Assembly (NCBI GenBank): GCA_037439545.1
Contig: JBBIVV010000005.1
Coordinates: 6,504 to 70,503 of the forward strand
Source: a bacterium
GTDB taxonomy: Bacteria > JAMCPX01
DNA length: 64,000 nt
Direction of reading: 5' to 3'
Shown here: piece after piece, positions 9,332 to 60,944 of the stretch
Position numbering within the stretch: position 1 is the stretch's first letter
How the letters are laid out: every line of letters starts with the position of its first letter
Made by a program: the position numbers and the translations under genes
Notes under the pieces: model-generated
Database searches by the model: none
What the model was told of the DNA's origin: nothing
The model's input: only the letters and a program-made list of their open reading frames with translations

Positions 9332-9359
9332 GATAGTTTCTTATTCAAAACAGACGGAC

Positions 9360-10151
9360 TTACTCGGAAACCTGTGTGAATTTTGCGAGCAGAGTTTTAT
9401 TTATTTCTATCCTTCCGTTTGTCCTTGCATCATCGACAAGCCCCTGTATCCACGAGCTGTATGCGGATTGAGCCACATCGTACTTCAACTGCATGCCTGT
9501 GTGCGCGGCATTCCCGGGCATCCCTGCAGATTTCGACGGATTCTCGATTGTGTCCAGCATTTTTACTTCATTGTCGCTGAGAAAAATACCATCGAAGAAA
9601 AGTTTTTTTAATTTTAATGTCAGTATGCTCTGTTTGACATTCTGCTGAAAATTATCGGGGGTTATATTATTGTCCCTCAGCACTGTGTAGTATATTCTCG
9701 GATCAAACTGGTGTTCTTTGTTGAGAAAAGAGGAAAGATGGGATATCTGGTCCCTTAATTCATCGCTTGTTACCATAAACCCTATGTCATGCGCCTGCTG
9801 TACCGCAACCTCGTCCGATATAAGGTTGTTTAATACCAGAGCGGGAATATTCATGGATGCAATGAGTTCAGGCGTTAACCCGCCTTTAAACTCCTTGCTA
9901 TAGTTATTCAGTGCAATCTTGTACGTGCTGTTAAAACTATCGGTTGATATGGCTTTGCGGTTTACTATGGCTACCGTGCCTTCCGATATGCCCGTGCCGC
10001 AGCTCCTTGCAATACCGAATATGCCTCCAAACCCTCCGAGAAAGGTTATGGCTACTACGAAATAGATCACCTTCAAGCCCCAATTACCCGTGTATTTTCT
10101 TATATAATTTAACATAACAAGTGAGTATATTAAGCGATAATAAAAAATCAA
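9360..10151 (-). CDS. SurA N-terminal domain (PpiD-like) periplasmic chaperone, no PPIase domain
   Basis: An N-terminal TM anchor is followed by a SurA_N-like helical domain (VAIVNRKAISTDSFNSTYKIALNNY...). The track start is a TTG. An internal ATG at 10115 (MLNYIRKY) matches PpiD-type N-termini better. Confidence 0.6.
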   Translation of the reverse strand: MIFYYRLIYSLVMLNYIRKYTGNWGLKVIYFVVAITFLGGFGGIFGIARSCGTGISEGTVAIVNRKAISTDSFNSTYKIALNNYSKEFKGGLTPELIASMNIPALVLNNLISDEVAVQQAHDIGFMVTSDELRDQISHLSSFLNKEHQFDPRIYYTVLRDNNITPDNFQQNVKQSILTLKLKKLFFDGIFLSDNEVKMLDTIENPSKSAGMPGNAAHTGMQLKYDVAQSAYSSWIQGLVDDARTNGRIEINKTLLAKFTQVSE

Positions 10152-23947: not shown

Positions 23948-24242
23948 TGCCTCGCCTTCACCTATGGGAAAGAAAACCCATAGCCCAGCTCAAGGAATGC
24001 CTCTACGAGATTCGACAATTGTTTGACTTGAGGTTCGAAATGAAGGAAACTTAATATGCTTCATACACAATTTTAAGGGGTAGTCTCGCCTCTGCCGGAG
24101 AGGTGATAAAATCGGAGGGGCGGTTCGTAAACCGCCCTTTAACGGTTACGCTGGCCGTGGTTTCTCCATCGGGATATGCTTGCAAAATCTCCCGCTTTGG
24201 CATATCCTGCTCATAAGTGCACGACTCTTAAAAAAAGGAGGG

Positions 24243-46300: not shown

Positions 46301-47109
46301 CTGAAGTTCCATCCTGCAATGTCCCGTGCATAACCATTATGGTCGGCATCAACGCCGTCCTGACCGAAGAGTAAGATCAAATCTTCGGGATCTATGAAGC
46401 CGTTGCCGTTCTGATCGGTTATCGGTACAGAGGTGCTGTTGTACCACGCAGACCCGGCTCCGCCTCTCGAACCATCGTAATCCGCAATATTAAAAACACC
46501 ATCCTGATTCCAATCAAAGCATGAGATGTTGTAATAACCGCCATTTGCAACACACGCGGTCGTTGCTGAAACATCTGTGCCTGCTGCCAGGTGGCATGTA
46601 CATCCCGTTACAAACCCGCCAGCAATGACTGAAGGGTTATATGGCGGAGGCAGTTCCCTGTAGTTGAGATGAATCTTATCAACCAGACTCCGGTTATTCC
46701 ATTCTATTCCTGAATCCAAAACAGCTATCAGTACATGCGGATCACCTGTTGTATATTGCCATGCCCTGTCAGCGCTGATGCCGCTCACGCCATAGAGCTG
46801 TTCAGGAGTGTCAAGGGATGCCGTACCCTGCACCAGATAAGGCTCAAAACTAAAGTAATTCCAGTCCTCATCAAGGACACCTGCACCTGAGTTATAATAA
46901 GTGCCGGTGGTGGGACCGAACCCTGGCTCTGCCTTAGCATAATTGGGGTCCCAGGGAAGATACTGGACCCAGTCAGAACTCTTTATGGAGCTCGGTGTGC
47001 CGGGTGTTCCGGGCCAATTTGGATTGCCTCCCTGGGCAAGCACTTTGATACCTGCCAGTAAACCTACTGCAAACATCACAATGACCGCTGTTATTAGTTT
47101 CGTTTTCAT
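43399..47109 (-). CDS. large secreted S8 (subtilisin-like) peptidase with FG-GAP/beta-propeller repeats and C-terminal Ser-rich linker plus TM anchor
   Basis: Signal peptide. The S8 triad regions are VLIAVLDSGIEWNN, FGHGTGEAEDS and KTSGMAGIIASM. At least three FG-GAP-like repeats follow (VGDLLGNGITDIVAATMDGRVYAWD, VGDILGNGGVEIAVGT, IADITGDGMPEVIEGSAGYQVWAWD). The C-terminus reads SSSSSSGCSCNTSGTA-TM-KRRAL. Confidence 0.75.
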   Translation of the reverse strand: MKTKLITAVIVMFAVGLLAGIKVLAQGGNPNWPGTPGTPSSIKSSDWVQYLPWDPNYAKAEPGFGPTTGTYYNSGAGVLDEDWNYFSFEPYLVQGTASLDTPEQLYGVSGISADRAWQYTTGDPHVLIAVLDSGIEWNNRSLVDKIHLNYRELPPPYNPSVIAGGFVTGCTCHLAAGTDVSATTACVANGGYYNISCFDWNQDGVFNIADYDGSRGGAGSAWYNSTSVPITDQNGNGFIDPEDLILLFGQDGVDADHNGYARDIAGWNFRDNNNDPWDLNSFGHGTGEAEDSSAPANDSSVGSPGVCPRCMFMPVRCGDSFVADSNHFAEGVLFATDSGASVIQEAFGTLNMTRFAQQAIDYAYNHNVVIIASAADEDSMHHNYPSNGNHVIMVHAVATNNLGNKNKPITSFLAFNNCTNYGAHLVLSTPGESCSSEATGKTSGMAGIIASMAFTEGIKLTANEFKQIVTLTADDINIPNSVPGSANYDPTLYESLPGWDQYFGYGRANLYKAVLSVTTTAIPPEADITDPNWFQTIDPVQVPDLDIYGYVNARRAGSYDYEVQYGIGITPSAFVTVCNQKGLTSPLSGKLCTINLANIPITEKPITNVETWTEGGANDYALTIRVRVFDNQHKNIYELPILSTGDTRLYGEDRREIFIHHDSDLYPNYPIYLGTSLESSPVFADLYGTGRDVLLIGGSDGRVYGFDKNGNPLPGFPLATDVLDVFDTSQPANLVNHLNAPAYAGGTITPASASILSTVAVGDLLGNGITDIVAATMDGRVYAWDNQGNILPGFPVHINYGYSDLFTNTTLRSSVLQSLNCGGADPKCAPNSKNDIPNHAILASPVLYPVGSKGLDIIVAAEDQHVYIWDGTGALIRDFAVYNNTVPYYRQYTRIVSTPAVGDILGNGGVEIAVGTNEDYRGATQAYVMNLDGTYAPGWPKQISAISPDILPYIGIGIPTSPVLFKSGSDPGLKVAFNPISSNPIIFNPDGSVFQSISGKFPANADTAETGAITLISNMSVGSLSNGDTQLAYGAVGMNVLNMEANGSLREPFDHLVSVWDVNNNTYAPYFPRAIEDWQMLNAPVIADITGDGMPEVIEGSAGYQVWAWDAKGTMPAGWPKFTGGWILSSNAVGNVESRSNASAPNALQWAKFHHDLWNTGNYTIPLPVRNGHLAVAASTREGYLYMWKAPSGSSSSSSGCSCNTSGTATRIDLLIIILIGAMPLLFIIAMKRRAL

Positions 47110-47244: not shown

Positions 47245-49275
47245 TTATATCGTCAGAGCCAATTCAAACCCATGCTTTATGGCATCCAGTGCCTTTGCCG
47301 CAGACAGTGCATCCCCTATCACATGAATACGTTTGTCCTTTATCTTTGAGAATGGATTATAGGGAGCTGCACCTGTCGCAAGTATGATTACTCCGGCATC
47401 AAATGACTGCGTCTGTCCGTTATTCTCGGCATGTACTACGCCTTCCTCTATTTTGGTTACCCTTGTATTGGTGTACATCTTTATGCCGCGTCTCTTTAAC
47501 TGCTGCATGACCGGCCAGCGGGTTGATCTCCCGATGTCCTTGCCCATCTTATCGAGCATCTCGAGCATAATAATCTTTCTTGTAGATTCCTTTAAAAGCT
47601 TTTGAACAAGCACGGGGTCCTCTGCATCATTTTCAAGTAAGAACCGGGCCACCTGTCCATCCATAGTGCCGCCTTCTGCAAGATACAGGGCGACATCACA
47701 CCCTACTGCACCGCCTCCGATGATGACGATGTCCTTTGTCGTACCCGTAAACTCCTGAGAAAGAATATTCCATGCAAGCTTCACATACCCATCTTCGATA
47801 CCCTCTTCCAGTCCTTCTATGCCGGGTATGACCGGAGCAGCACCGGTGGCAACGATAATCTCATCCGCTTTGAGTTTTGCAAGGCTGTTCTTGTTTATAG
47901 CTTTCCCAAGATAAAGGTTGACGCCATGATGCTCGAGTTGATGTGCAAAATAGAGCAAAAGATCATAAAATCCCGCTTTATCAGGCACAGCACTTGCAAG
48001 ATTAAATTGCCCGCCGATCCATTTCTCTTTCTCGTAAATGCTCACCTTGTGCCCTCTTTGAGCAAGTGTTATTGCAGCTTCAAGCCCGGCCGGGCCCGCA
48101 CCTATGACCGCAACTTTCTTAGGCTTCTTAGCCTTGGTAAGCTTTATTTCCTGCTCTTTGCCGACAATAGGGTTTACAAGACAGGTTGCGGGCATTCCGT
48201 TAAAAATGTTGTCAAAACATCCTTGATTGCAGGCTATACAGTAATTGATCTCTTCAAGTTCGCCTTTCTGAGACTTTAGAGGAAAGTTCGGATCAGCTAT
48301 CAATGCCCTTCCCATGATCACCATATCCGCCCAGCCGTCATTGATAACCTTCTCGGCTACCTTCGGATTGTTGATCCTGTTGGATGCCATAACGGGTACG
48401 TGAACAGCCTGCTTTACCTTCATTGCAAGGTATGAAAATGCACCCTCCGGCACTGCAAAGGTAAGCTGCGGCACATGCGTTTCATGCCAGCCGCCTGTTA
48501 TATTAAATCCGTCGATGCCTGCCTGGTCCAGTACCTTTGCGAATTCAACCGTTTCATTTATCGTATTGCTTCCATGAACAAAATCACTGCCGGAGAGCCT
48601 CATAATGACAGGGAAATCGTCTCCAACGGTCTGTCTAACTTTTTGAAAAACCTCTCTGCCGAACCGCATCCTGTTTTCAAACGATCCTCCGTATTCGTCT
48701 GTCCTCTGGTTTGTTAAGGGAGACAGGAACTGGCAGATAAGATACCCTGCCGATGCAAGGATCTCGATACCATCTATGCCGGCCTTTTTTGCACGGAGTG
48801 CTGCATCGGCATAATGCTGCTGGACCTGTTTTATTTCACCGGCTGTCAACGGTTTTGGAGCCTCATGGGTAAGTTTTGAAGGCACTGATGACGCAGAAAC
48901 AGGCGTTTCACCGCCTATCATCCATGACGCCACATACCTGCCTGCATGATAAAGCTGTGCAAAGATCTTCGTATCATAGGTGTGCACCTTTTTTGCAAAA
49001 GCAGTCAATCCCGGAATAAAATCATCTGTATCGAGTCTAATCATAAATGGTCCTGCCCCGACCTTATCTATGGTGCATCCGCCGATGATGATCAATCCGG
49101 CGCCGCCCTTTGCCCTGCTTTCGAAGAACGAGGTCATTTGATCGGTAACAAAGCCTTCCGGCGTGTAATTCAGATGCATGGCAGGGAAAACAATTCTGTT
49201 CTTTATCTCGAGCTTATTTATGTGTACAGGCGTAAACAGTGAAGTGAAATATTTGCTGTTCATGTGTTCCTCCAA
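47245..49275 (-). CDS. NADH:flavin oxidoreductase (old yellow enzyme) fused to FAD/NAD(P)-binding domain; 2,4-dienoyl-CoA reductase (FadH)-like
   Basis: 676 aa. An OYE TIM-barrel N-terminus (FPAMHLNYTPEG, QLYHAGRY), a Cys motif (CIACNQGCFD) and a C-terminal Rossmann domain (VAVIGAGPAGLEAA). Confidence 0.85.
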   Translation of the reverse strand: MEEHMNSKYFTSLFTPVHINKLEIKNRIVFPAMHLNYTPEGFVTDQMTSFFESRAKGGAGLIIIGGCTIDKVGAGPFMIRLDTDDFIPGLTAFAKKVHTYDTKIFAQLYHAGRYVASWMIGGETPVSASSVPSKLTHEAPKPLTAGEIKQVQQHYADAALRAKKAGIDGIEILASAGYLICQFLSPLTNQRTDEYGGSFENRMRFGREVFQKVRQTVGDDFPVIMRLSGSDFVHGSNTINETVEFAKVLDQAGIDGFNITGGWHETHVPQLTFAVPEGAFSYLAMKVKQAVHVPVMASNRINNPKVAEKVINDGWADMVIMGRALIADPNFPLKSQKGELEEINYCIACNQGCFDNIFNGMPATCLVNPIVGKEQEIKLTKAKKPKKVAVIGAGPAGLEAAITLAQRGHKVSIYEKEKWIGGQFNLASAVPDKAGFYDLLLYFAHQLEHHGVNLYLGKAINKNSLAKLKADEIIVATGAAPVIPGIEGLEEGIEDGYVKLAWNILSQEFTGTTKDIVIIGGGAVGCDVALYLAEGGTMDGQVARFLLENDAEDPVLVQKLLKESTRKIIMLEMLDKMGKDIGRSTRWPVMQQLKRRGIKMYTNTRVTKIEEGVVHAENNGQTQSFDAGVIILATGAAPYNPFSKIKDKRIHVIGDALSAAKALDAIKHGFELALTI

Positions 49276-49419
49276 TTTCCTGCCTATACATCATAGCTTG
49301 TTCGATGTCTACTAAAATAACACGGATCCTTCTCAAAAAAAGTGATTATGGAGCTCCCGGATAAACACTACTTTGGTAGGATTCATGAAATGGAACAACA
49401 CCGGAAACTTCCTCGGGGG

Positions 49420-49448
49420 TTGACACTATTCATAGTTTACCGTATACT
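49420..49448 (+). promoter_or_regulatory. near-consensus sigma-70 promoter upstream of pilB (TTGACA, 17-nt spacer, TATACT)
   Basis: Read directly from the sequence. The -35 hexamer is at 49420 to 49425 and the -10 at 49443 to 49448. The RBS (GAAGGGGG) and ATG at 49480 follow. Confidence 0.55.
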
Positions 49449-49479
49449 AAATTTAATTGTTTGAAGGGGGTTACTATTT

Positions 49480-51171
49480 ATGACTTCGAGGCTTGGAGAG
49501 CTCCTTGTTAAAGAAAACTTAATAACGACAGACCAGCTGAGAAAAGCGATGGAAGAACAGAAAGCCGGCGGCGGAAGGCTGGGCTCGAGTCTTACAAAAC
49601 TTGGATTCGTTACCGATGAAGAACTGCTGACATTCCTGAGCAAGCAGTACAATGTCCCTGTCATAAATCTCGATGAGTTCGAGATAGAAAAAGAGATTGC
49701 CCGCAAGATACCGCAGGCTATTGCCAAAAAGCACCTCATTATACCCGTAAATCAGACGGGATCCACACTTATCGTGGCAACTTCAGACCCGACGAACCTC
49801 GGTGTCATAGATGAAATAAAATTTTTGACAGGCTACAATGTAGAATTCGTTGCAGCTACAGAGAATGCACTTACCAAGGCTATAGAAAAATATTTTGAGG
49901 TGTCCACGGATTATCAAGGCATACTCGACGAGGCTGCTCAAGAATATGAAGTTATCTCGGATGAAGACAACATAGACATCAAGACTCTTGAAAAGGCGAG
50001 TGAAGAGGCTCCTGTCATACGTCTTGTCAACTCAATCCTGAACGATGCAATAAAGAAAGGTGCGAGCGACATCCATGTGGAGCCTTATGAGAAGACTTTC
50101 AGGGTAAGGTTCAGGATAGACGGTATGCTTTATGAGATTATGAAACCGCAATTATCATTGAAACCCGCTATTGCTTCAAGATTAAAGATAATGGCAAAGC
50201 TTGATATTGCGGAGAGACGGAGGCCCCAGGACGGCAGGATCAAGATCCGGTATGCTGACGGAAAAGATATGGATTTCCGGGTTTCTGTTCTTCCTACACT
50301 CTTCGGCGAGAAGATCGTTCTCCGGTTGCTCGATAAATCCAACCTTCAGCTTGACATGACAAAGCTCGGCTTCAACGAGAAGCAGTTGAAGGACTTTAAA
50401 GACTCAGTGCATAAACCTTACGGCATGGTGCTCGTGACGGGTCCGACAGGGAGCGGTAAGACCACGACGCTTTATTCAGCACTGTCTGAATTGAATCAAA
50501 TATCTAAAAATGTCTCGACAGCAGAGGACCCGGTTGAATACAATATGCCCGGTGTTAACCAGGTTCAGATGCATGAGGAGATAGGCTTAAACTTTGCTGC
50601 GGCACTAAGGTCATTCCTCCGGCAGGACCCTAACATCATCATGGTCGGAGAGATAAGGGACTATGAAACTGCCGAAATAGCCGTAAAGGCCGCATTGACA
50701 GGACATCTTGTATTGTCGACAATCCATACTAATGATGCCCCCAGTACTATTAACAGGCTGTTGAATATGGGTATAGAGCCATTCCTTGTCGCCTCGGCTG
50801 TCCATGCAATACTTGCGCAAAGGTTAGTGAGAAAAATATGTGACAAGTGTAAAGAAGAAATAGATGTTGGAAAGAAGGCCTTGCTTGATATCGGCATTTC
50901 TGAGGCAGAAGCCAAAAACTTAAAAGTCTATAAGGGCAAGGGATGCACTGTATGCAACAACACCGGTTATAAGGGCAGAATTGCTGTTTATGAAATCCTT
51001 ACCATAGCAGAGGAACTCAGGGAGTTGATATTAGCCGGTGCATCTGCTAATGAAATAAAGAAAGAAGCCATGAGGCTTGGCATGATGACGATGCGTCAGA
51101 GTGCAGTAGATTTTTTAAAAAAAGGGCTTACAACAGTAGATGAGGTTGTAAGAGTGACAGCAAAAGATTAG
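49480..51171 (+). CDS. pilB: type IV pilus assembly ATPase PilB (GspE family)
   Basis: 563 aa. An N-terminal MshEN-like domain, Walker A (GPTGSGKTT) and a tetracysteine motif (CDKC...CTVC). Confidence 0.9.
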   Translation: MTSRLGELLVKENLITTDQLRKAMEEQKAGGGRLGSSLTKLGFVTDEELLTFLSKQYNVPVINLDEFEIEKEIARKIPQAIAKKHLIIPVNQTGSTLIVATSDPTNLGVIDEIKFLTGYNVEFVAATENALTKAIEKYFEVSTDYQGILDEAAQEYEVISDEDNIDIKTLEKASEEAPVIRLVNSILNDAIKKGASDIHVEPYEKTFRVRFRIDGMLYEIMKPQLSLKPAIASRLKIMAKLDIAERRRPQDGRIKIRYADGKDMDFRVSVLPTLFGEKIVLRLLDKSNLQLDMTKLGFNEKQLKDFKDSVHKPYGMVLVTGPTGSGKTTTLYSALSELNQISKNVSTAEDPVEYNMPGVNQVQMHEEIGLNFAAALRSFLRQDPNIIMVGEIRDYETAEIAVKAALTGHLVLSTIHTNDAPSTINRLLNMGIEPFLVASAVHAILAQRLVRKICDKCKEEIDVGKKALLDIGISEAEAKNLKVYKGKGCTVCNNTGYKGRIAVYEILTIAEELRELILAGASANEIKKEAMRLGMMTMRQSAVDFLKKGLTTVDEVVRVTAKD

Positions 51172-51185
51172 ATGTGGGGGTGGCA

Positions 51186-52313
51186 ATGAGTTTCAATCTG
51201 CATCAGTTGTTGAAAGTAATGATAGAAAAAGGGGCAAGCGACCTTCATATAACGACAGGCAGCCCTCCTCAGTTGAGGATAGACGGTGAATTAACGCCGC
51301 TCAAAGTCCCGCCTCTTACTGCAACAGAAACAAAACAGCTTTGCTACAGTATTCTTACTGATGCACAGAAACAAAAATTTGAGCAGGAGAACGAGCTTGA
51401 TCTGTCATTCGGCGTAAAAGGCTTAAGTAGGTTCAGATCGAATATATTTATGCAGAGAGGAGCTGTTGCCGGCGCATTCAGAACGATCCCTTTTAAAATA
51501 TTGAGTTTCGACGAGCTTGGACTGCCGCCTGTCGTAGCAGAGCTCACCAAGAAGGTGAGAGGGCTGATCCTGGTAACGGGCCCTACCGGCAGCGGAAAGA
51601 CCACGACACTCGCCTCTATAATAGCAAAGATAAACGAGGACAGGCATGAGCACATCATTACCATAGAGGATCCTATAGAATACCTGCACCCACATAAGAA
51701 TTGTATCGTGAACCAAAGAGAGGTGGGCGCTGACACGAGAGGATTTGCAAATGCCTTAAAGTATATTTTAAGGCAGGATCCGGATGTAGTACTCATTGGA
51801 GAGATGAGGGACCTTGAAACGATTGAAGCTGCACTCAATACGGCAGAAACCGGCCACCTCGTTCTTGCAACATTGCACACAAACTCAGCAGTCCAGACAA
51901 TCAACAGGATCATTGACGCATTCCCGCCGCACCAGCAGTCTCAGGTAAGGGCACAGTTGTCCTTTGTTCTTGAAGGAATTTTAACTCAATCGCTTATACC
52001 AAAGTATAATCAGCCGGGCAGATCGCTGGCATGCGAGGTACTGGTACCTATACCGGCCATAAGAAACCTGATAAGAGAGGAAAAGGTCCATCAGATATAC
52101 TCACACATGCAGGTGGGACAGGCAAAGTTCGGCATGCAGACCATGAATCAGTCTTTGTTCAACCTGTACCAGAGGAAATTAATTTCATTGGATGATGCTA
52201 TGATATACTCGTCGGATCTCGAAGAACTCAAACAGATGCTCCAGGCAGGCACGACCACGCCGCCGTCTGTCCAGGCTCAGGCAAGGATGCAGAATGCTCA
52301 AAAAAGCTTTTAA
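51186..52313 (+). CDS. pilT: type IV pilus retraction ATPase PilT
   Basis: Walker A (GPTGSGKTTT), AIRNLIRE motif and a GGGGGTGG RBS before the ATG at 51186. The track ORF starts at 51174 on a GTG. Confidence 0.9.
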   Translation: MSFNLHQLLKVMIEKGASDLHITTGSPPQLRIDGELTPLKVPPLTATETKQLCYSILTDAQKQKFEQENELDLSFGVKGLSRFRSNIFMQRGAVAGAFRTIPFKILSFDELGLPPVVAELTKKVRGLILVTGPTGSGKTTTLASIIAKINEDRHEHIITIEDPIEYLHPHKNCIVNQREVGADTRGFANALKYILRQDPDVVLIGEMRDLETIEAALNTAETGHLVLATLHTNSAVQTINRIIDAFPPHQQSQVRAQLSFVLEGILTQSLIPKYNQPGRSLACEVLVPIPAIRNLIREEKVHQIYSHMQVGQAKFGMQTMNQSLFNLYQRKLISLDDAMIYSSDLEELKQMLQAGTTTPPSVQAQARMQNAQKSF

Positions 52314-52326
52314 ATGGAGGTAAGCA

Positions 52327-53538
52327 ATGGCTATTTTTACTTGGGAAGGAATGAAAAAAACAGGCGAAGTCGTAAAAGGCAGTACAGATGCTCAGAGTGA
52401 AAATGCCGTCATAGCCATACTCAGACAACAGGATATAAGGCCTACCAACATCAAGGAAAAGAAAGCGTCCTTTAATCTGGATAGTATAAACATCTTCAAG
52501 GAAAAGGTTACGGGCAAAGACCTGTCGATCTTCACAAGACAGTTTGCGACCATGATTGACTCTGGTCTGCCGCTTGTCCAGTGCCTGGACATACTTGGCG
52601 CACAGCAGCCGAACAAAACATTCCAGAAGACCATAAAGGACATAAAATCGTCCATTGAAGGCGGCTCTACCTTTGCCGCTGCATTAAAAAAACACCCGGA
52701 CACCTTTGATTCTCTGTACTCGAATCTCGTGGCTGCAGGAGAGGTCGGCGGTATGCTCGACACAATACTTGCGCGGCTCGCGACTTATATCGAAAAATCC
52801 GAGAAATTAAAAGGCAGGGTAAAAGGTGCCATGGTGTATCCAGTCGTTGTATTGACGATTGCCGCCGGGGCTACCGCAGTATTGCTTTTGTTTGTAATAC
52901 CCGTTTTTGCAAAGATGTTTGCAGATGTCGGTGCGGCACTGCCGGCTCCAACCCAATTCGTTATGGATCTCAGCAACTTCTTAAGGCATTACTTCCTGTA
53001 TATGATTATAGGGATAGCGGCTGTCATTTATGCGATCAGGGCTTACTATAAGACAGCGAACGGAACCCTGGTCATAGACAGTATGTTATTGAAGGCGCCG
53101 GTATTCGGCGATCTTATCCGGAAAAATGCAGTGGCAAGGTTTACCAGAACGCTCTCAACGATGATCTCAAGCGGTGTTCCTATCATGGACGGTCTCGAAA
53201 TCGTTGCCCGCACATCAGGCAATAAGATCATCGAGAATGCGATTATGAAAGCACGGGAAAGCATCGCTGCAGGCAAAACGATATCCGAGCCACTCGGTCA
53301 GACAAAGGTCTTCCCGTCCATGGTCGTTCAGATGATCTCAGTGGGCGAGGCTACGGGTAACATGGATGCAATGCTTTCTAAAATTGCAGATTTTTACGAT
53401 GAAGAAGTCGATGCTGCCGTAGCAAGCATGACGTCCCTTATCGAGCCGCTGCTAATCGTGTTCCTCGGTGTTGTTATCGGCGGCCTTGTTGTTGCAATGT
53501 ACTTACCAATCTTCAAGATTGCAAGTACGGTTAAATGA
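52327..53538 (+). CDS. pilC: type IV pilus inner-membrane platform protein PilC (GspF family)
   Basis: 403 aa with two GspF repeats and TM segments. An RBS (GGAGG) is present. Confidence 0.9.
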   Translation: MAIFTWEGMKKTGEVVKGSTDAQSENAVIAILRQQDIRPTNIKEKKASFNLDSINIFKEKVTGKDLSIFTRQFATMIDSGLPLVQCLDILGAQQPNKTFQKTIKDIKSSIEGGSTFAAALKKHPDTFDSLYSNLVAAGEVGGMLDTILARLATYIEKSEKLKGRVKGAMVYPVVVLTIAAGATAVLLLFVIPVFAKMFADVGAALPAPTQFVMDLSNFLRHYFLYMIIGIAAVIYAIRAYYKTANGTLVIDSMLLKAPVFGDLIRKNAVARFTRTLSTMISSGVPIMDGLEIVARTSGNKIIENAIMKARESIAAGKTISEPLGQTKVFPSMVVQMISVGEATGNMDAMLSKIADFYDEEVDAAVASMTSLIEPLLIVFLGVVIGGLVVAMYLPIFKIASTVK

Positions 53539-55214
53539 TGCGGGAAGACAGCACAGAACCGACACAAGAACTTTTACCCTCAACCTCACCGGCAACTTCA
53601 CCGGTGACTTCTATAGAAAAACAGGAGCTTTTAACCAGGCTCTTCTGGTCTACTGCGATAAGACTGATTCTTATAACACTGCTTATCGGCATTGCATTTA
53701 CCACATATCAGTACAAGACGATATTCCGTGCTGCCCCATGGTTGTCGCCTTTAATAATACTGATATCAGTTCTCTATGTATTCAGCTTCATAGAACTGCT
53801 CGCCATAAAAAAGCGGAAAAGGCTTAAAGTCATAGCGTATATCGCTACATCTTGGGATGTTCTGTTTACATCAGCTCTTGTTATAGCGACAGGAGGCATC
53901 GATAGTATATACACCTTCTTATACCTTTTCGTGGCCATCGAGGCCGGCTTCTTATTGTCACAGCAAGGAGGATTTATCTTTGCGTCTCTTTCATCGATAT
54001 TCTATGGACTCCTCGTCGATGCTCAGTTTTACAGATTAATTCCGTCATTCATACCGTCGCCCGACATAACGCGTCCTGTAAAAGACATCCTTGTCAATCT
54101 CATAACCTATATGGGGACGACATTCTTATTGGGAATACTGAGCGCCTTTCTCGGTAATAATCTGTTAAAGGCCAAACAATCGCTGTCTGCAAGCAGCATT
54201 GACCTCAGACATCTGACAAATCTCTATGCCATAATTGTCAATAGTATAGACTCGGGATTAATAACACTCGACGAACACTATAATTTAAATACCATGAATC
54301 CTGCGGCAGTGCGCATAACCGGCTATGATCTTCATGACATTGAAGGGAAAAAAATAGATGACATTATGCCGGGGATCCAACTGCCGGCTACCGGAGTCAA
54401 AAGGAACGAATTAGTCATTAAAAAAAAAGATAAACACGGTGTGCAGATAGGTTACACTATGTCTAACCTGCACGATGAAACAGGCAAGATGATAGGTACA
54501 GTCATAGCATTTCAGGATCTTACCGAGATGAAGAAGATGGAAGCCAAGCTGAAGCGCTCCGACATCCTTGCAACCGCAGGCAGGCTTGCTGCAAGCGTTG
54601 CGCATGAAATACGAAACCCTCTTGCGTCTATCAGCGGTATGGTCCAGATACTTATGGAAGATTTAAAAAGCAACAAGGAATTTGAAAAACCGTTGGACCT
54701 CATATTCAGGGAAGTAGACAGAATAAACAATCTCATTACAGAGTTCCTGTCGATGTCGAAACCTGTTACCCATATTCAGGAAGGTATACTCTTGAAACCG
54801 ATTGTCGACGAAGTTTTTGAAAGTGTCATGAAGAGGGTGGATTATAATCCTTTGGTAAAACTGCTGAACCCGTTATCGGACGATATAACGATAAAGGCAG
54901 ACAAACTTAAAATAAAACAGGTGTTGCTCAACCTTGTTCTTAATGCTATTCATGCAATTAAGGAAACAGGGTTTGTAACTGTAAAATGCATGAAAGAGAA
55001 TAAACATACCAGACTGTCGGTCGAGGACAATGGAGGAGGCATGGATGAAAACGAACTAAAGCTGTGCCTAGAACCTTTTTGGACAACGAATCCCGGAGGT
55101 ACGGGACTCGGACTGCCGGTGGTGCAGGCCATTGTTGAACAGCACTATGGTGTTTTATTCATAAAAAGCAAAAAAGGTGAAGGAACACATGTTGAAATCG
55201 AACTGCCTTTATAA
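53535..55214 (+). CDS. pilS: sensor histidine kinase, PilS-like (polytopic N-terminus, PAS, HisKA, HATPase)
   Basis: About six TM segments, a PAS region, an H-box (SVAHEIRNPL), N/G boxes (LNLVLNAIHA, GGTGLGL). It is overlapped by pilC and followed by pilR. Confidence 0.85.
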   Translation: MMREDSTEPTQELLPSTSPATSPVTSIEKQELLTRLFWSTAIRLILITLLIGIAFTTYQYKTIFRAAPWLSPLIILISVLYVFSFIELLAIKKRKRLKVIAYIATSWDVLFTSALVIATGGIDSIYTFLYLFVAIEAGFLLSQQGGFIFASLSSIFYGLLVDAQFYRLIPSFIPSPDITRPVKDILVNLITYMGTTFLLGILSAFLGNNLLKAKQSLSASSIDLRHLTNLYAIIVNSIDSGLITLDEHYNLNTMNPAAVRITGYDLHDIEGKKIDDIMPGIQLPATGVKRNELVIKKKDKHGVQIGYTMSNLHDETGKMIGTVIAFQDLTEMKKMEAKLKRSDILATAGRLAASVAHEIRNPLASISGMVQILMEDLKSNKEFEKPLDLIFREVDRINNLITEFLSMSKPVTHIQEGILLKPIVDEVFESVMKRVDYNPLVKLLNPLSDDITIKADKLKIKQVLLNLVLNAIHAIKETGFVTVKCMKENKHTRLSVEDNGGGMDENELKLCLEPFWTTNPGGTGLGLPVVQAIVEQHYGVLFIKSKKGEGTHVEIELPL

Positions 55215-55234
55215 AATAATAAAGAAAGCACTCT

Positions 55235-56617
55235 ATGATCCAGATACTTGCTGTTGATGATGATAAAAGCATGCGTGAGTTCCTTGAGCTCATACTTAAA
55301 AGGGAAAGGTACGATGTAACCTGCGCCAAAGACGGTGCGGACGCTATCCTGCTTTTGAAAGACAATTTTTTTGATCTGATAATAACTGATCTTATGATGC
55401 CCGCTATAAACGGTTTGGAGGTATTGAAAAAGGCAAAAGAGATTTACCCGGATATAAAGGTTATTGTAATTACTGCATTCGGTACCATAGAAACTGCTGT
55501 AGAAGCAATAAAGCTCGGTGCTTATGACTACATCACAAAACCCTTTAACAACGATGATTTAAGGCAGCGAATCCGGCGGGCAATCGAAACCCAGAAAATC
55601 GAGCACGAGAACAAAAGGCTGAAACAGGAACTCGGGGTGAAGGATGGGAAATGGGACATTATAGGTGTAAGCAGCATCATGCAGGATATTTTCAACCTCA
55701 TAGAAAGGGTAAAGGATACGAGAACGAATGTTCTTATCTATGGTGAATCGGGAACGGGCAAAGAACTGGTAGCCCGCGCAATACACAATCAGGGTGCGAG
55801 ACAGAATGAGCCGTTTATACCGATCAACTGCGGCGCAATACCTGAAAATCTTGTGGAGAGTGAACTGTTCGGGCATAAAAGGGGTGCATTTACCGGTGCT
55901 ACGGAAAACAAAAAGGGGCTTTTTCTCGAAGCAGACGGGGGGACAATCTTCCTTGACGAAGTCAGTGAATTGCCGTTTCAAACACAGGTTAAACTGTTAA
56001 GGGTTATTCAGGACAAAAAAATTAAACCTGTCGGAGACTCACTGGAATATCCGGTCGATGTCAGGATTCTCTCAGCGACAAACAGGAACCTGAAACAGCT
56101 CGTAAAAGAGTCGAAATTCCGGGAGGACCTCTTCTACCGGTTAAATGTGATACAGATAGAAATGAAACCATTGAGAGACAGAAAGGATGATATTCTTCCC
56201 CTTGCGAGACATTTTCTTGAAAAATACGGTAAAGAGTTCGGCAAAAAAATCCAGGATTTTTCGAATGCAGCGATCGATATATTGAAAAATTATTATTATC
56301 CGGGCAACGTCAGAGAGCTTGAGAACATCGTGGAAAGGGCAGTTGCAATAGAATCGGCCGCTGTTATCCTGCCGGAATCCCTGCCGCAGGAATTGACCCA
56401 TGCAGTTCCGGACAATACCGGCCGGGCATATACCCTGGAAGATATCAAATCAAGATTCAACGGGGTTATCGACAACCTGCTGAATACGATAGAGAAGGGA
56501 TTGATAGAAGATGCGCTCAAGGTAAGTTCCAATGACCGGCTAAAAACCTGCACATTGCTGGGTATCCCCATGCGATCGCTGAGATATAGAATCAAAAAAT
56601 ATAACATTATGGATTAA
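55235..56617 (+). CDS. pilR: sigma-54-dependent response regulator, PilR-like (REC, AAA+, Fis HTH)
   Basis: REC domain (ILAVDDD...D at DLMMP), GESGTGKE and GAFTGA motifs, and a C-terminal HTH. Confidence 0.9.
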
Positions 56618-56707
56618 GAAAGCTTGATTTATAGACGGACTTAATATATTCATTGTCAGAAAAACATTATTATGTTTGATTGAATTTTAAATAAATGAGG
56701 AGGCACG

Positions 56708-58024
56708 ATGAAAATATTTAACATAGTTATATTATTCTGTACCATTGTCATGGCCCCTGCAGTTCTCATTGCATCTCCGTCCGACAGTCAGAATTCCGGA
56801 ATAATCGAGATTCCATCCGCAACAACGGTCGCGCCCGAAGCGCCGGCACCGTCCATAATGCCGGTCCAGTCCGCAGCAGCATCGCCGCCTTTTACTCTCA
56901 ATTCCAGCACTTATCTCAACACGTTCGGATTGAATGGTAATAACATTGACAATAAGTATCTTCCTTTCTATGAAGACCTGAACTTTAAATACCTTACCTT
57001 AAGCAAAGGTTTGAGCATAGAGGCCTCTGGATGGTTGAGATACGATTTACTCTCCAATGAATACACCAACAGGGCAAACGCTGATTTTACCTACGGCTAC
57101 CTTAACTATCAACCCGGTTCACTTCCTCTGAAGTTGAAGCTCGGAAGGGTTTATAGCTGGTTTGGATGTGCCAACGACCATTATGACGGCATTGAACTGA
57201 TGCTTCAAAATATCCATGGGTTTGGAATCGGCGCTTTTGCCGGAAGTGAGGTTGATTCACAGCTTCACGATACACCCGGAGGCGTTACGGCGGGAGGCAG
57301 GTTATCCTATGACTCATCCCTCTTTGGTATTGGTGGTTCTTTGTTTTATGCTGCGAACAATGATTACCTGTCCCAGTACAGGTGGGGCGCAGATGGATGG
57401 GTAAAGCCAGCCGACATGCTTTATCTATTTGGCAGGTACTATTATGATATGGTTGATAAAAGGCTTTATGACGGAACTGTAAAATTATCATTAACCCCCC
57501 TCAGGAGGGTATTTGTAAATGCTCAATACTCTCTTTTCAACCCTGCATCTCTCATTGATAAGACGAGCATATTCTGGGTATTCAATACGGAGTCTTACAG
57601 GACCATTGTTGCGGACATAGGCTACAGAATCCTTGATGATCTTTCTGTGTCTTTGGATGGTTCTAAATACATGTATAGTTCTGAAGGCAATGCGTACAGT
57701 TATGGAGGTGCGCTCAACTATGATATGCATCCTTATGCACTCGGCCTTGAACTGAAAAAAACGGATTCAAACCCGACGGATTATTTGACCACAAGGGTTT
57801 ATATATTCAGAAACTTTATCATGGGGTTTTATGCCAATATAGACGTCATCTACACATCTTATCTTGGCGAACTGAAAGGCTACGATCACAGCATTACCGG
57901 TCATGCCGCCGTCGGAAAAACGATTGTCAAAAACCTGAAGCTTACGCTGTCGGGAGATTCAACAGACGGACCGTATGTAAGACACGGCGGTTTTGGCATG
58001 CTGAGTCTGAAATATGAACTGTAA
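56708..58024 (+). CDS. putative outer-membrane beta-barrel protein (porin-like), unknown family
   Basis: Signal peptide and a Pro/Ala-rich linker. Then about 370 aa of alternating aromatic/Gly-rich amphipathic strands (GFGIGAFAG, LFGIGGSLFYAANNDY, YSYGGALNYD), ending in GFGMLSLKYEL. Strong RBS (GAGGAGG). There are 12 nt to the next gene. Confidence 0.5.
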   Translation: MKIFNIVILFCTIVMAPAVLIASPSDSQNSGIIEIPSATTVAPEAPAPSIMPVQSAAASPPFTLNSSTYLNTFGLNGNNIDNKYLPFYEDLNFKYLTLSKGLSIEASGWLRYDLLSNEYTNRANADFTYGYLNYQPGSLPLKLKLGRVYSWFGCANDHYDGIELMLQNIHGFGIGAFAGSEVDSQLHDTPGGVTAGGRLSYDSSLFGIGGSLFYAANNDYLSQYRWGADGWVKPADMLYLFGRYYYDMVDKRLYDGTVKLSLTPLRRVFVNAQYSLFNPASLIDKTSIFWVFNTESYRTIVADIGYRILDDLSVSLDGSKYMYSSEGNAYSYGGALNYDMHPYALGLELKKTDSNPTDYLTTRVYIFRNFIMGFYANIDVIYTSYLGELKGYDHSITGHAAVGKTIVKNLKLTLSGDSTDGPYVRHGGFGMLSLKYEL

Positions 58025-58036
58025 AGAGGGGGCATT

Positions 58037-59086
58037 ATGAAAAAATGGTTTTTCTTATCTGTTGTAATTATATTATTTTCAGCTTCTTGCAATAAAATTC
58101 TTTCTTCTCACAAGGATACGCTCATATTTTCACATAAATTGCATGTTACCGCCAATGGCATTGAGTGTCTCACCTGTCACTCGGGTATCGATACAACGAC
58201 CACAACGTCCGGCAATTTTGTACCGAAAATGGATGTGTGCTTTCAATGTCACAGCGATGCACAAAACAAGTGTACGATGTGTCATACCGACCCGGACAAG
58301 GCCATGCCTTTCCCTGTCGAAAAACGGGACATTGTATTTTCTCACCAGTCGCACCTGTCCAGAGTTAAGAATGATTGCACCTACTGCCATACACGTATAT
58401 CTCTGGAAACGGCACCAGCGCCCGGCAATCTGCCCACGATGCAGGTTTGCCTGACATGCCATCAAAAAGATTATGATACACTGCAATGCTCCGGATGTCA
58501 CACCTCCCTGAGCTCACTATCGATAGAAAGACTATCGCATTTCACTCACAATGCAGGGTTTAAAAACAACCATGGAGTCATTGCAAGGACCGATATAAAT
58601 TCGTGCGAACAATGCCATCAACTGTCTTTCTGTGATACTTGTCACAATACAAATGCTAAGATACTTCCCTCCATTCGTTATCCGGAAGCACCCCAACAGC
58701 CCCTCATACACAGAGGCGATTGGCTTGCGGTCCACTCAATCGATGCACAGCAGGACCCGTCCTCCTGTTACAGGTGTCACTCGGCATCGAGCTGCCGCGA
58801 GTGCCATCTGAGAAACGGCGTCGCTGCAAATGGCTCACCAAATACCGCATCTCCCCACCCTGCCGGAACGGATTTCTTGTTTAACACGGCTTCACCTCAA
58901 TTCCATGGAAAGCTTGCGAGACAAAACATCAATACGTGTGCTTCATGCCACAGCGGAGGAGCAGATGCAGTATGCGTACAGTGTCACAAGGTCGGCGGTA
59001 TTGGCGGCAATCCGCATCCGTCTGATTTCAGATCCAGCCTTAACATGAACAAGGACAAAGTATGCCTTGTCTGTCACGCTCAATAA
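58037..59086 (+). CDS. multiheme c-type cytochrome lipoprotein (13 CXXCH motifs)
   Basis: Signal peptide with a lipobox-like motif (LFSASC). The thirteen CXXCH motifs are CLTCH, CFQCH, CTMCH, CTYCH, CLTCH, CSGCH, CEQCH, CDTCH, CYRCH, CRECH, CASCH, CVQCH and CLVCH, in 349 aa. RBS AGAGGGGG. Confidence 0.85.
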   Translation: MKKWFFLSVVIILFSASCNKILSSHKDTLIFSHKLHVTANGIECLTCHSGIDTTTTTSGNFVPKMDVCFQCHSDAQNKCTMCHTDPDKAMPFPVEKRDIVFSHQSHLSRVKNDCTYCHTRISLETAPAPGNLPTMQVCLTCHQKDYDTLQCSGCHTSLSSLSIERLSHFTHNAGFKNNHGVIARTDINSCEQCHQLSFCDTCHNTNAKILPSIRYPEAPQQPLIHRGDWLAVHSIDAQQDPSSCYRCHSASSCRECHLRNGVAANGSPNTASPHPAGTDFLFNTASPQFHGKLARQNINTCASCHSGGADAVCVQCHKVGGIGGNPHPSDFRSSLNMNKDKVCLVCHAQ

Positions 59087-59098
59087 TCAAATGCCGGT

Positions 59099-59137
59099 AA
59101 AGGGTTGGTTAAAATTAATCAACCCTTTGTTTTCATT
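59099..59137 (+). terminator. rho-independent terminator after the cytochrome gene
   Basis: AAAGGGUUGGUUAA-loop-UUAAUCAACCCUUU stem (one mismatch) followed by GUUUUCAUU. Confidence 0.65.
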
Positions 59138-59293
59138 ACACGGATATTACAGACAGGACTTGTTTTTTCCGGACAGAGATATTATTATTTTTAATCCAAA
59201 GTTAAGTATATGTTGTAATTTTTACAGATTTCTCTTAAAGGAACCTGTATGTTGAATTTCATAAAGGCATTAATTAAAAAAAAAGGAGCTCAC

Positions 59294-59893
59294 ATGGTAG
59301 CCCCAAAAAAGAAAACTAAAAAAAAGAAAAAAATCGCAAAGCCGGCAGCCAGGCCGGTAAAGAAACCAACCAAAAAGATGATTCCAGTAGCTCATAAGAA
59401 ACTGCGAAAGGCGGGAACGAAGATAAAAATGAAACCGAAACCGGTAAAAAATGCAGCACGTAAGCGGACAAAGCCTCATGTAGAGTATGAACAGATCCGG
59501 CAAATGCTTCTCAAAATGAGAGCAGAAATTATGGACCAGCTGACAAAGAAAAAATCTTCTCTTGAAGAAGAAAAGACCGTAGAAATAGAGGATCTTGATG
59601 CAATAGCAGAGGATAGGAACAGGGAGTATGAGTATCTGTTGACAACAATGGATACAAAAAAGCTCAAACAGATAGACGAAGCACTCGCAAAGATAGGAAA
59701 CAAAACATACGGTATATGTGAGGAATGCGGCGAGGAAATACCTATTGCAAGATTAAAGATATTACCCTTTGCAAAGTTGTGCATTGACTGCGTTTCTAAT
59801 GTAGAAAAAGAAGAGGCACTTAAACAATCGCTTGAGAGTGAAAAAGACATATTTACCACGGGCAGCAACGAGGAAGAAAGTGATATAGAATAA
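59294..59893 (+). CDS. DksA/TraR-family C4 zinc-finger protein with N-terminal Lys/Pro/Ala-rich histone-H1-like tail
   Basis: C-terminal CEECGEEIPIARLKILPFAKLCIDC (CxxC-17-CxxC) preceded by a coiled-coil. The N-terminal approx 60 aa are more than 40 percent Lys (KKKTKKKKKIAKPAARPVKKPTKK...). The start is placed at the ATG after AAAGGAG. The track ORF starts at 59249. Confidence 0.6.
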   Translation: MVAPKKKTKKKKKIAKPAARPVKKPTKKMIPVAHKKLRKAGTKIKMKPKPVKNAARKRTKPHVEYEQIRQMLLKMRAEIMDQLTKKKSSLEEEKTVEIEDLDAIAEDRNREYEYLLTTMDTKKLKQIDEALAKIGNKTYGICEECGEEIPIARLKILPFAKLCIDCVSNVEKEEALKQSLESEKDIFTTGSNEEESDIE

Positions 59894-59906
59894 CGCAGGG
59901 GTGATT

Positions 59907-60944
59907 TTACGGGAATAAAGGCGGTGCTGTAAGCCCCTGTTTTTCGTCGAAGCCGAGCATAATATTCATATTCTGGATTGCCTGTCCTGCAGCACCTTTC
60001 ACGAGATTATCGATCGCAGAAAACAGGATTATGGTTGCATTTTCTTTATCATAGTGCACAGCAATGTCTATGTAGTTGGAGCCTTTTACCGCATGAACAT
60101 TCGGGAGGTCGGGGTATCGTAAGACCCTCACAAAAGGTTCATTCCGGTACGCCTCCAGCAGAATGGATTCAAGTTCGGCCTGACCTGTATTTTTATCCTG
60201 TGCCACAGCATATATAGTTGTAAAAATGCCCCTGTTCATTGGAACAAGGTGGGGTACAAAGGTTACATGCGTACCCTTTGAAAACTCTGATAATTCCTGG
60301 TCTATCTCCGGAATATGCCTGTGAGCAGACGGCTTATACGCCTTAAACCCCTCATTGACTTCAGAAAAGTGCAGGTCCTGGGAAGGGGCCCTTCCTGCTC
60401 CGGTTACACCGCTTTTTGCATCTATAATAATGTTTCTGCTTATTATTATTTTTTTCTTGAGGAGAGGTGCTATCGGTATAATTGAACCTGTGGGATAGCA
60501 TCCAGGATTGGCTATAAGTTTTGCATGTTTGATAGCATCCCTTTTCAATTCAGGCATGCCGTAAACAGCACTGTCAGCCAGTTTTTTTTCTATTTCAAAA
60601 CCATACCATTTTTTGAATACTTCCTGATTTTTTATCCTGAATGCACCGCTGAGATCGATTACAACCGTGTGGGGTTTGAGGAATTTATGGCATACCGAAG
60701 CAGACTGGTCGTGGGGCAGTGCAAGAAATACGACATCGAAGTCACGGTCATAGAGTTCACTTATTTTCTGACAGGTAAGTTTATAAACCCCGGCAAGCGA
60801 CGGTATAGCTTTATCGACAGTCTCTCCTGCGTGCCTGTCTGCACTTATTGCACTAACTTCAATGCCGCCGTGGCTGTATAAGAATCTTAATAATTCTATG
60901 CCAGAGTAACCAGTTGCACCTAATACGGCTACCCTTTTCATCAT
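59907..60944 (-). CDS. argC: N-acetyl-gamma-glutamyl-phosphate reductase
   Basis: 345 aa. VAVLGATGYSGIELLRFL Rossmann N-terminus and an active-site Cys region (IANPGCYPT). Confidence 0.9.
   Translation of the reverse strand: MMKRVAVLGATGYSGIELLRFLYSHGGIEVSAISADRHAGETVDKAIPSLAGVYKLTCQKISELYDRDFDVVFLALPHDQSASVCHKFLKPHTVVIDLSGAFRIKNQEVFKKWYGFEIEKKLADSAVYGMPELKRDAIKHAKLIANPGCYPTGSIIPIAPLLKKKIIISRNIIIDAKSGVTGAGRAPSQDLHFSEVNEGFKAYKPSAHRHIPEIDQELSEFSKGTHVTFVPHLVPMNRGIFTTIYAVAQDKNTGQAELESILLEAYRNEPFVRVLRYPDLPNVHAVKGSNYIDIAVHYDKENATIILFSAIDNLVKGAAGQAIQNMNIMLGFDEKQGLTAPPLFP

Follow-up and report, generated by a model that had tools for sequence, protein, structure and literature searches.

What is known of outer-membrane electron conduits comes from a few families that have been studied by experiment and are unrelated to one another. 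A Geobacter conduit is defined by its three elements, a multiheme cytochrome in the periplasm plus a barrel and a redox lipoprotein in the outer membrane (PMC6148476). In the OmbB-OmaB-OmcB, ExtABCD and ExtEFG clusters a barrel gene lies beside a multiheme lipoprotein gene, and these clusters are not attached to pil genes. The MtrAB, PioAB and MtoAB systems have two genes, and one multiheme cytochrome within the barrel can span the outer membrane. In OmcK/OmcL of Geobacter, HotSeep-1 and Seep-SRB2 a porin is joined by a lipoprotein cytochrome that faces the outside of the cell, and no gene for a periplasmic cytochrome lies next to them (PMC10553843). The type IV pilus genes of Geobacter and Myxococcus are ordered pilB-pilT-pilC-pilS-pilR-pilA, and in G. 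sulfurreducens pilA lies immediately 3' of pilR and has a PilR-regulated RpoN promoter (PMC2725144). The locus described here is carried by a 64,000-nucleotide (nt) stretch of DNA (hereafter the window; contig JBBIVV010000005.1 of assembly GCA_037439545.1, positions 6,504 to 70,503) from an uncultured, "deltaproteobacterial" lineage. It has the same five pil genes in the same order, but lacks both a pilin gene and a -24/-12 promoter element after pilR, and carries genes for a predicted outer-membrane beta-barrel and a 13-heme lipoprotein cytochrome instead. The favoured explanation, to which a probability of roughly 55% is given, is that this pair is an electron conduit cassette that is co-transcribed with the pil genes and is not a direct target of PilR and sigma-54.

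The gene order, as read from the map of open reading frames (ORFs), is pilB-pilT-pilC-pilS-pilR (49480-56617), barrel, and cytochrome, with intergenic gaps from pilB through the cytochrome of 2, 13, -4, 20, 90, and 12 nt. This order had been proposed in a first-pass annotation of the window; its coordinates were reproduced, the gene families were confirmed by Pfam and NCBIfam scans, and that observation as a whole is confirmed, with corrections to its regulatory and evolutionary parts that are given below. The first gene of the pair (56708..58024, plus strand) encodes 438 amino acids (aa) that had been taken for a beta-barrel, and structure prediction agrees: a signal peptide and a disordered Pro/Ser/Ala linker (approximately residues 24-60) precede roughly 22-24 strands that form an outer-membrane beta-barrel. 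Judged from this model, the integral outer-membrane beta-sheet protein of the Geobacter conduit definition (PMC6148476) would be present. The protein has no Pfam match at E <= 0.01, MtrB_PioB included, and its family profile retrieves nothing from the PDB sequences at E <= 10. The linker (window 56777-56887) occurs in most members of the clade of related loci described below and is deleted in P0010, P0013, and P0014; its presence or absence does not track linkage to pil genes.

The second gene (58037..59086, plus strand) follows after 12 nt that hold a GGGGG ribosome-binding site, and encodes a 349-aa cytochrome c with exactly 13 CXXCH motifs, zero variant motifs, and a signal peptide that ends in a lipobox (SAS before Cys18). 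The earlier call of a 13-heme lipoprotein at this position is thus borne out, and the predicted lipobox together with the 13 CXXCH motifs points to the redox-cofactor outer-membrane lipoprotein of the Geobacter definition (PMC6148476). Among 101 relatives, Cys18 is kept in at least 90%, all heme motifs are invariant or nearly so, and 11 histidines outside the motifs are essentially invariant, which would be enough for bis-His ligation of most of the hemes. No CXXCK motif or catalytic-type heme site is present in the 349-aa protein. Taken together, the 11 conserved histidines and the lack of CXXCK favour electron transfer and disfavour catalysis, and the cytochrome is predicted to be an electron-transfer wire rather than an enzyme.

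Pfam assigns Cytochrome_C7, Paired_CXXCH_1, and, above cut-off and in the C-terminal half, MtrC/MtrF domain II/IV to the cytochrome. A search with its family profile gave 3ov0, a Geobacter c7-polymer cytochrome, with E = 4.3e-28 (residues 27-164, in the N-terminal half), ActA of alternative complex III (ACIII) with E = 1.2e-16, and MtrC with E of about 2e-9. A weaker match (E = 6.3e-9, ~170 residues) is to chain A of 6r2q, which carries an odd label in the table and which we take to be MtrA of the MtrCAB complex; PpcA, too, ranks among the closest relatives in sequence and structure. Among solved structures, the closest by sequence is the GSU1996-type dodecaheme (3ov0), which has a similarly dense heme packing of ~25 residues per heme. 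GSU1996 itself, with 12 hemes, is periplasmic and soluble, whereas the present cytochrome has 13 hemes, a lipid anchor, an MtrC II/IV-like C-terminal half, and an obligate barrel partner.

Compared with described conduits, the pair has the barrel-then-lipoprotein order of ExtE-ExtF, and a heme number (13) comparable to the 12 of OmcB and ExtD (PMC6148476); its likeness to the Geobacter clusters, as far as shown, is one of architecture. It shares the two-gene layout of MtrAB, PioAB, and MtoAB, but the barrel is unrelated to theirs by sequence, lacking the MtrB_PioB match, and the cytochrome differs from MtrA in having 13 hemes instead of 10, in being a lipoprotein, and in being encoded second, after the barrel. 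The two-gene architecture is likewise shared with OmcK/OmcL, as far as a comparison by description goes; OmcK has 10 hemes (PMC10553843), OmcK/OmcL are unlinked to pil genes, and membership of the same family is unlikely from the heme numbers in these descriptions. A closer match in heme content is the putative 'TmlA'-type conduit of Seep-SRB1g (LWX52_07950-07960), in which a 13-heme lipoprotein likewise lies beside a porin (S6 Table, PMC10553843). That cluster adds a 7-heme periplasmic cytochrome, of which there is none adjacent to the pair in the window. TmlA is uncharacterised and is listed in the supplementary table only (PMC10553843; OEU59769.1 / LWX52_07950); from its description, it possibly belongs to the same family as the window cytochrome.

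The pair is not confined to pil loci. A word-indexed search for barrel homologs returned 15, distant seeds added 2, and an exhaustive profile search raised the number to 566 cluster representatives (344 at E <= 1e-10), mostly 400-460 aa in length. The cytochrome family has at least 393 members; among 120 listed relatives, 94 have 13 CXXCH motifs and 24 have 12, with one extra CX3-4CH in 15 of the latter, and a lipobox-type cysteine is found in 103. In every context examined, the gene directly upstream of a distant cytochrome homolog (35-41% identity) is a barrel homolog (BLASTP E = 3e-24; hhalign probability 98.3%). The barrel profile (A1) detects it in L027 (E = 9e-45), L006 (9e-43), L007 (2e-20), and L026 (2.6e-6), and no pil genes were found in these four distant loci. 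The barrel-cytochrome pairing is thus ancient, broadly distributed, and modular, and would behave as an outer-membrane electron plug.

The genes around these distant cassettes differ, and some of the loci encode an additional multiheme cytochrome in the cluster. In Minicystis rosea (L026; CP016211, 604-11750) the cassette lies inside a large cytochrome cluster that encodes an 857-aa 8-heme protein with CarboxypepD_reg domains, a 742-aa 10-heme protein, the barrel, the 13-heme protein, a 599-aa 26-heme protein, and a 207-aa NapC/NirT-like protein. By its gene content this cluster resembles a full pathway from the inner membrane to the cell surface, in a myxobacterium that is in culture, and M. 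rosea is thus a possible experimental model for the cassette. A Myxococcota contig (L007) combines the cassette with a 948-aa cytochrome of at least 20 hemes and a tetraheme c3. Two further loci associate the cassette with formate dehydrogenase, in the orders FdnG-FdnH-FdhE-barrel-cytochrome-FdhD (L027, 1942-9829) and FdhE-barrel-cytochrome-TatA...FdnG-FdnH (L006, 5807-15563). The L006 FdnG has a twin-arginine signal and an in-frame TGA at codon 199, likely a selenocysteine codon, within HQARI-U-HSSTV, which we take to be a selenocysteine motif. These Fdn-linked cassettes suggest that formate oxidation or CO2 reduction is wired to the outer membrane.

The formate dehydrogenase loci also bear on another explanation, in which the pair faces the periplasm: the cytochrome would be an electron sink or relay tethered to the outer membrane, serving formate dehydrogenase, for instance, or a c3/c7 network, with the barrel as its anchor or as a substrate porin. 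Consistent with this, the L027 and L006 pairs lie between FdhE and FdhD or TatA, beside FdnG/FdnH, and neither locus has a cytochrome b subunit among its called genes; the best relatives of the cytochrome (3ov0, ACIII ActA, PpcA) are periplasmic or periplasm-facing; and the window locus offers no periplasmic partner cytochrome. It is hard to see, however, why a purely periplasmic carrier should be paired strictly 1:1 with a large barrel in lineages so remote from one another, the Minicystis and L007 contexts resemble complete envelope-spanning cytochrome pathways, and the MtrC/MtrF domain II/IV match lies above its Pfam cut-off. A periplasm-facing pair is therefore considered unlikely, and the conduit cassette remains the preferred reading.

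Within the clade, the linkage to pil genes is conserved. The block pilBTCSR-barrel-cytochrome-dksA is found in the window and in L003, L009-L013, L015, L023, L024, and L028, whose barrels are 63-75% identical to that of the window. The left flank differs in every clade locus, and the right flank varies as well, with argC-rpsI-rplM in several loci, PPDK in L023, and ATP sulfurylase in L024. Because the outer flanks are rearranged while the block stays intact, the eight genes appear to move as a unit. One relative, L001 (barrel 59% identical), has barrel-cytochrome-dksA-argC-rpsI-rplM with no pil genes upstream; where the others have pil genes, a divergently transcribed gene for a 511-aa 8-heme cytochrome (8289-9824, minus strand) adjoins the barrel. 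The 8-heme protein is a candidate periplasmic partner that has no counterpart at the window's locus. As L001 has the pair but no pil genes, the linkage, though conserved, is not obligatory. The dksA gene directly follows the cytochrome gene in every clade locus, pil-less L001 included, and within the block stability is greatest for the barrel-cytochrome-dksA trio. An association of the pair with the dksA/argC side rather than with pilR was considered and dropped, as L023 and L024 keep pil-barrel-cytochrome-dksA with other right flanks. The pil-barrel-cytochrome linkage is thus a conserved, clade-specific feature. No description of a pil-operon-linked conduit was found in the literature, and the MBNT15 genome paper is silent on the arrangement, so that the earlier suggestion of an undescribed arrangement stands.

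The position after pilR raises the question of the missing pilA. The region searched comprises the window plus 4.2 kb to its right and 6.6 kb to its left, taken from other assemblies of the same organism (~75 kb in all). A length-independent six-frame search for a class III signal pilin found none in this region, nor in any clade locus, and the same search recovered pilins in outgroup loci, which served as a positive control. As the first-pass annotation had it, there is no nearby pilin, and this extends to the sequence just outside the window. For the outgroups, a metagenome scan seeded with a PilS alignment gave 31 distant PilS-family loci in which pilR adjoins and is followed by at least 1 kb of sequence. 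Of the outgroups, those nearest in PilS/PilR (L031-L033; PilR 45-49% identical) carry a GFTLIELLIVVAIIG pilin ~230 nt after pilR, and the post-pilR position is therefore a pilin slot in the closest lineages sampled. On the other hand, a pilin lies within 3 kb of pilR in 11 of the 31 loci, and in the remaining 20 the cluster simply ends, so the absence of a pilin after pilR is common; it is the continuation into a barrel and cytochrome that is unique to the clade. The claim that the pair occupies the pilA slot thus agrees with the nearest outgroups, but replacement was overstated. Replacement of pilA is made less plausible by the wide occurrence of the cassette away from pil genes, by L001, and by the 20 pilin-less loci.

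These observations bear on the possibility that the pilA slot was taken over by the conduit, with PilS/PilR activating it through sigma-54, in which case surface or pilin sensing would control extracellular electron transfer. The pair does follow pilR directly, and on its strand, in the window and about nine relatives, at a position held by a pilin in the nearest outgroups, and PilR of G. sulfurreducens regulates its adjacent pilA from an RpoN promoter (PMC2725144). The GG-N10-GC signature of a -24/-12 element is nevertheless absent from the spacer of the window and from all nine pilR-to-barrel spacers compared for the clade, while a -24/-12 site is present in all nine outgroup pilR-to-pilin spacers used as a positive control, matching 9-10 of 12 consensus positions. 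Matches to TGGCACG-N4-TTGCW across the window occur at chance level (88 observed, 91 expected), and a candidate sigma-54 site at 56746 was rejected, as it has three mismatches, lacks the GG, and falls within the barrel ORF. The 0/9 against 9/9 comparison thus gives no support to a direct activation of the pair by PilR/sigma-54 from the spacer, nor to the earlier suggestion that the pair might be under PilS/PilR influence, and adjacency to pilR cannot be read as PilR control. With the cassette so widespread without pil genes, once even inside the clade, and a pilin so often lacking after pilR, a takeover of the pilA slot with activation by PilS/PilR is very improbable.

Transcription is better accounted for by a promoter upstream of pilB. 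A sigma-70-type site (49420..49448, plus strand; TTGACA-17 nt-TATACT, 11/12 positions) is the best promoter-like site in 49000-60000; both of its hexamers are invariant in 8/8 aligned clade loci, and the sequence farther upstream is unconserved. At the other end, an intrinsic-terminator-like hairpin (59099-59128) with a U-rich tail follows the cytochrome gene (59099..59137, plus strand). The fold of 59084-59150 has -19.9 kcal/mol with z = -4.46, and 0 of 200 shuffles were as stable, so that the strong terminator noted earlier after the pair is well founded. A terminator scan of the plus strand gave four further sites, all inside ORFs; the fold-confirmed site is the hairpin after the cytochrome. 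No terminator was called and no G+C-rich hairpin seen in the 90-nt spacer, and no Rfam match or riboswitch was found in 49000-60000 at E <= 1. The invariant sigma-70 site, the tight packing of the genes, the lack of a spacer terminator, and the hairpin after the cytochrome together suggest a single pilB-to-cytochrome operon.

The spacer itself (56618..56707, plus strand) is A+T-rich, with TTGATTTAT at 56624-56632, TATATT 15 nt downstream, and a GAGGAGG ribosome-binding site at 56697-56703. Just after the pilR stop, TTGATTTAT is invariant in 7/7 aligned pilR-linked loci and is not found upstream of the L001 barrel; it could be a weak -35 element, an RNA element, or a protein-binding site. A hairpin between the 3' end of pilR and TTGATTTAT was rejected, since, although 83% of cells are paired, there are zero compensatory changes and shuffles score equally. 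A canonical sigma-70 promoter was likewise not accepted for the spacer: the scan made no call, and TTGATT and TATATT are only 15 nt apart.

Several points weigh against a conduit cassette co-transcribed with the pil genes. On the conduit side, the barrel is a single-protein model of moderate confidence (pLDDT, a per-residue confidence score, of 62.5). No second cytochrome gene was found among the large ORFs of the window or in the 4.2 kb to the right and 6.6 kb to the left, and without a periplasmic multiheme gene in ~75 kb the conduit falls short of the Geobacter definition, unless the 13-heme protein crosses the membrane by itself. The porin-cytochrome architecture claimed in the first-pass annotation therefore holds for the barrel and the lipoprotein cytochrome, but not for the periplasmic cytochrome that defines the Omb/Oma/Omc and Ext clusters. 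Further, the lipoprotein could face either side of the outer membrane, and its topology in or on the barrel is inferred. On the operon side, one pilB-to-cytochrome transcript is the simplest model that the sequence suggests; the spacer could hold an internal promoter (TTGATTTAT...TATATT), and the pair can presumably be expressed without pil genes, judging from L001. The clade is also fairly shallow (PilB ~88-90% identical), and some of its conserved synteny may simply have been inherited.

Some of these points would fit a neutral neighbourhood, in which the pair is its own transcription unit with a promoter in the spacer and lies beside pilR by inherited gene order, with no regulatory or functional meaning. 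The invariant TTGATTTAT and its downstream TATATT, the different upstream region that serves the pair in L001, the shallowness of the clade, and the linkage of barrel-cytochrome-dksA to argC-rpsI-rplM in several loci, L001 included, are all in keeping with it. Yet L023 and L024 keep pilBTCSR-barrel-cytochrome-dksA though both of their flanks differ from those of the window, no terminator separates pilR from the barrel, and a 15-nt hexamer spacing is too short for canonical sigma-70. An inherited order of no functional meaning is accordingly viewed as a tentative possibility, second to co-transcription with the pil genes.

Alternatively, the PilB/PilT/PilC motor might place or assemble the lipoprotein cytochrome at the surface, in the manner of a type II secretion pseudopilus, and the shared operon would follow from this coupling of export. 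The Geobacter pilus has been proposed to work as a secretion device, and extracellular OmcS and OmcZ are lost when pilA-N is deleted (PMC12307469). By analogy, this proposal makes the linkage worth testing, though it is not evidence of coupling here. The eight-gene block is kept while both flanks rearrange, and its layout, from one invariant promoter to one terminator, is operon-like. Against these points, the basis for coupling at this locus is synteny, the distant family members and L001 do without adjacent pil genes, no pilin or pseudopilin gene is in the operon, and the secretion role in Geobacter is itself unsettled. Export by the pilus motor is thus quite unlikely.

The five pil genes, all on the plus strand, are assigned from domain and family matches. 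PilB (49480..51171), a type IV-A pilus assembly ATPase with an MshEN-type N-terminal domain, scores 788 bits against TIGR02538 (cut-off 675.65) and matches Pfam T2SSE and MshEN; it also matches NF053729, a model of a cyclic di-GMP (c-di-GMP) binding motif, with E = 9.7e-19. The MshEN domain (49480-49950) and the NF053729 match mean that pilus assembly may be c-di-GMP-gated. The retraction ATPase PilT (51174..52313) scores 494 bits against TIGR01420 (cut-off 319.1), and the platform protein PilC (52327..53538) scores 223.5 bits against Pfam T2SSF, its best NCBIfam model being the Myxococcus-type PilC (572 bits, under the 700-bit cut-off). The pilS-like gene (53535..55214), which overlaps pilC by 4 nt, encodes a sensor histidine kinase with 6TM_PilS, PAS, HisKA, and HATPase_c domains, and the pilR-like gene (55235..56617) a sigma-54-dependent response regulator with Response_reg, Sigma54_activat, AAA_lid_14, and HTH_8 domains.

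Downstream of the terminator, the dksA-like gene (59249..59893, plus strand) is probably a conserved neighbour on a separate transcript. Its 214-aa product (Pfam zf-dskA_traR; NCBIfam DksA_like, 85.7 bits, below the 105-bit cut-off) has a C4 zinc finger and a Lys-rich, histone-tail-like N-terminal extension of ~75 residues (KKKTKKKKKIAKPAARPVKKPTKK...). Other genes lie upstream of pilB. A 1236-aa secreted subtilase (Peptidase_S8) with a C-terminal hydrophobic anchor is encoded 2.3 kb upstream (window 43399-47109, minus strand), a position not kept in relatives; some Geobacter surface cytochromes are matured by subtilisin-like proteases. A GAF-GGDEF-EAL protein is encoded 23 kb upstream (24180-26168, plus strand). 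The left edge of the window cuts a second sigma-54-dependent response regulator (13-864, plus strand), which is followed by tatC (885-1664, plus strand). The partners of this regulator, a HAMP histidine kinase and an M54 peptidase, lie just beyond the edge (L108, 119-7476), and NrfD-like, 4Fe-4S, and two GCV_H-like genes lie farther left. The genome thus has several sigma-54 activators.

In the favoured explanation, the 438-aa and 349-aa proteins would form a two-gene outer-membrane electron conduit, most likely by an MtrAB/PioAB-like mechanism in which the heme chain sits in or on the barrel. The cytochrome, with no catalytic-type heme site, would be tethered by its N-terminal lipid anchor, and electrons would pass between periplasmic donors encoded elsewhere and the cell surface. 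Other lineages have the cassette in multiheme/NapC-like clusters or in operons of periplasmic formate dehydrogenase; in this clade, it would have become the 3' end of the pilB-pilT-pilC-pilS-pilR string, most likely transcribed from the sigma-70 promoter upstream of pilB to the hairpin after the cytochrome. As the spacer has no -24/-12 element, the pair would not be a direct PilR/sigma-54 target, and the pilin gene and the true target of PilR would lie elsewhere in the genome. The conduit is likely related in kind to known porin-cytochrome systems, and its operon context is likely lineage-specific and undescribed.

It is doubtful that the pil motor and regulator and the conduit were hard-wired into one operon because they work together, whether in pseudopilus-like export and assembly or in an obligatory co-expression of surface contact and electron transfer. 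Were this true, a direct link between the type IV pilus machinery and a porin-cytochrome conduit would have its first genomic evidence from outside Geobacter, and a function would be given to a large unnamed family of barrels and 13-heme cytochromes that plugs into formate dehydrogenase elsewhere. The locus points to another broad conduit family, with 566 barrel representatives that have no Pfam model and a conserved 13-heme lipoprotein, which appears undescribed save for the possible entry in one supplementary table. Its modular contexts (NapC-like and multiheme clusters, selenocysteine formate dehydrogenase, and the pilus operon) suggest a general-purpose outer-membrane electron plug, which would change how the potential for extracellular electron transfer is scored in metagenomes, and the conserved fusion to pilBTCSR provides a concrete, testable case for the debated coupling of pilus machinery and surface cytochromes.

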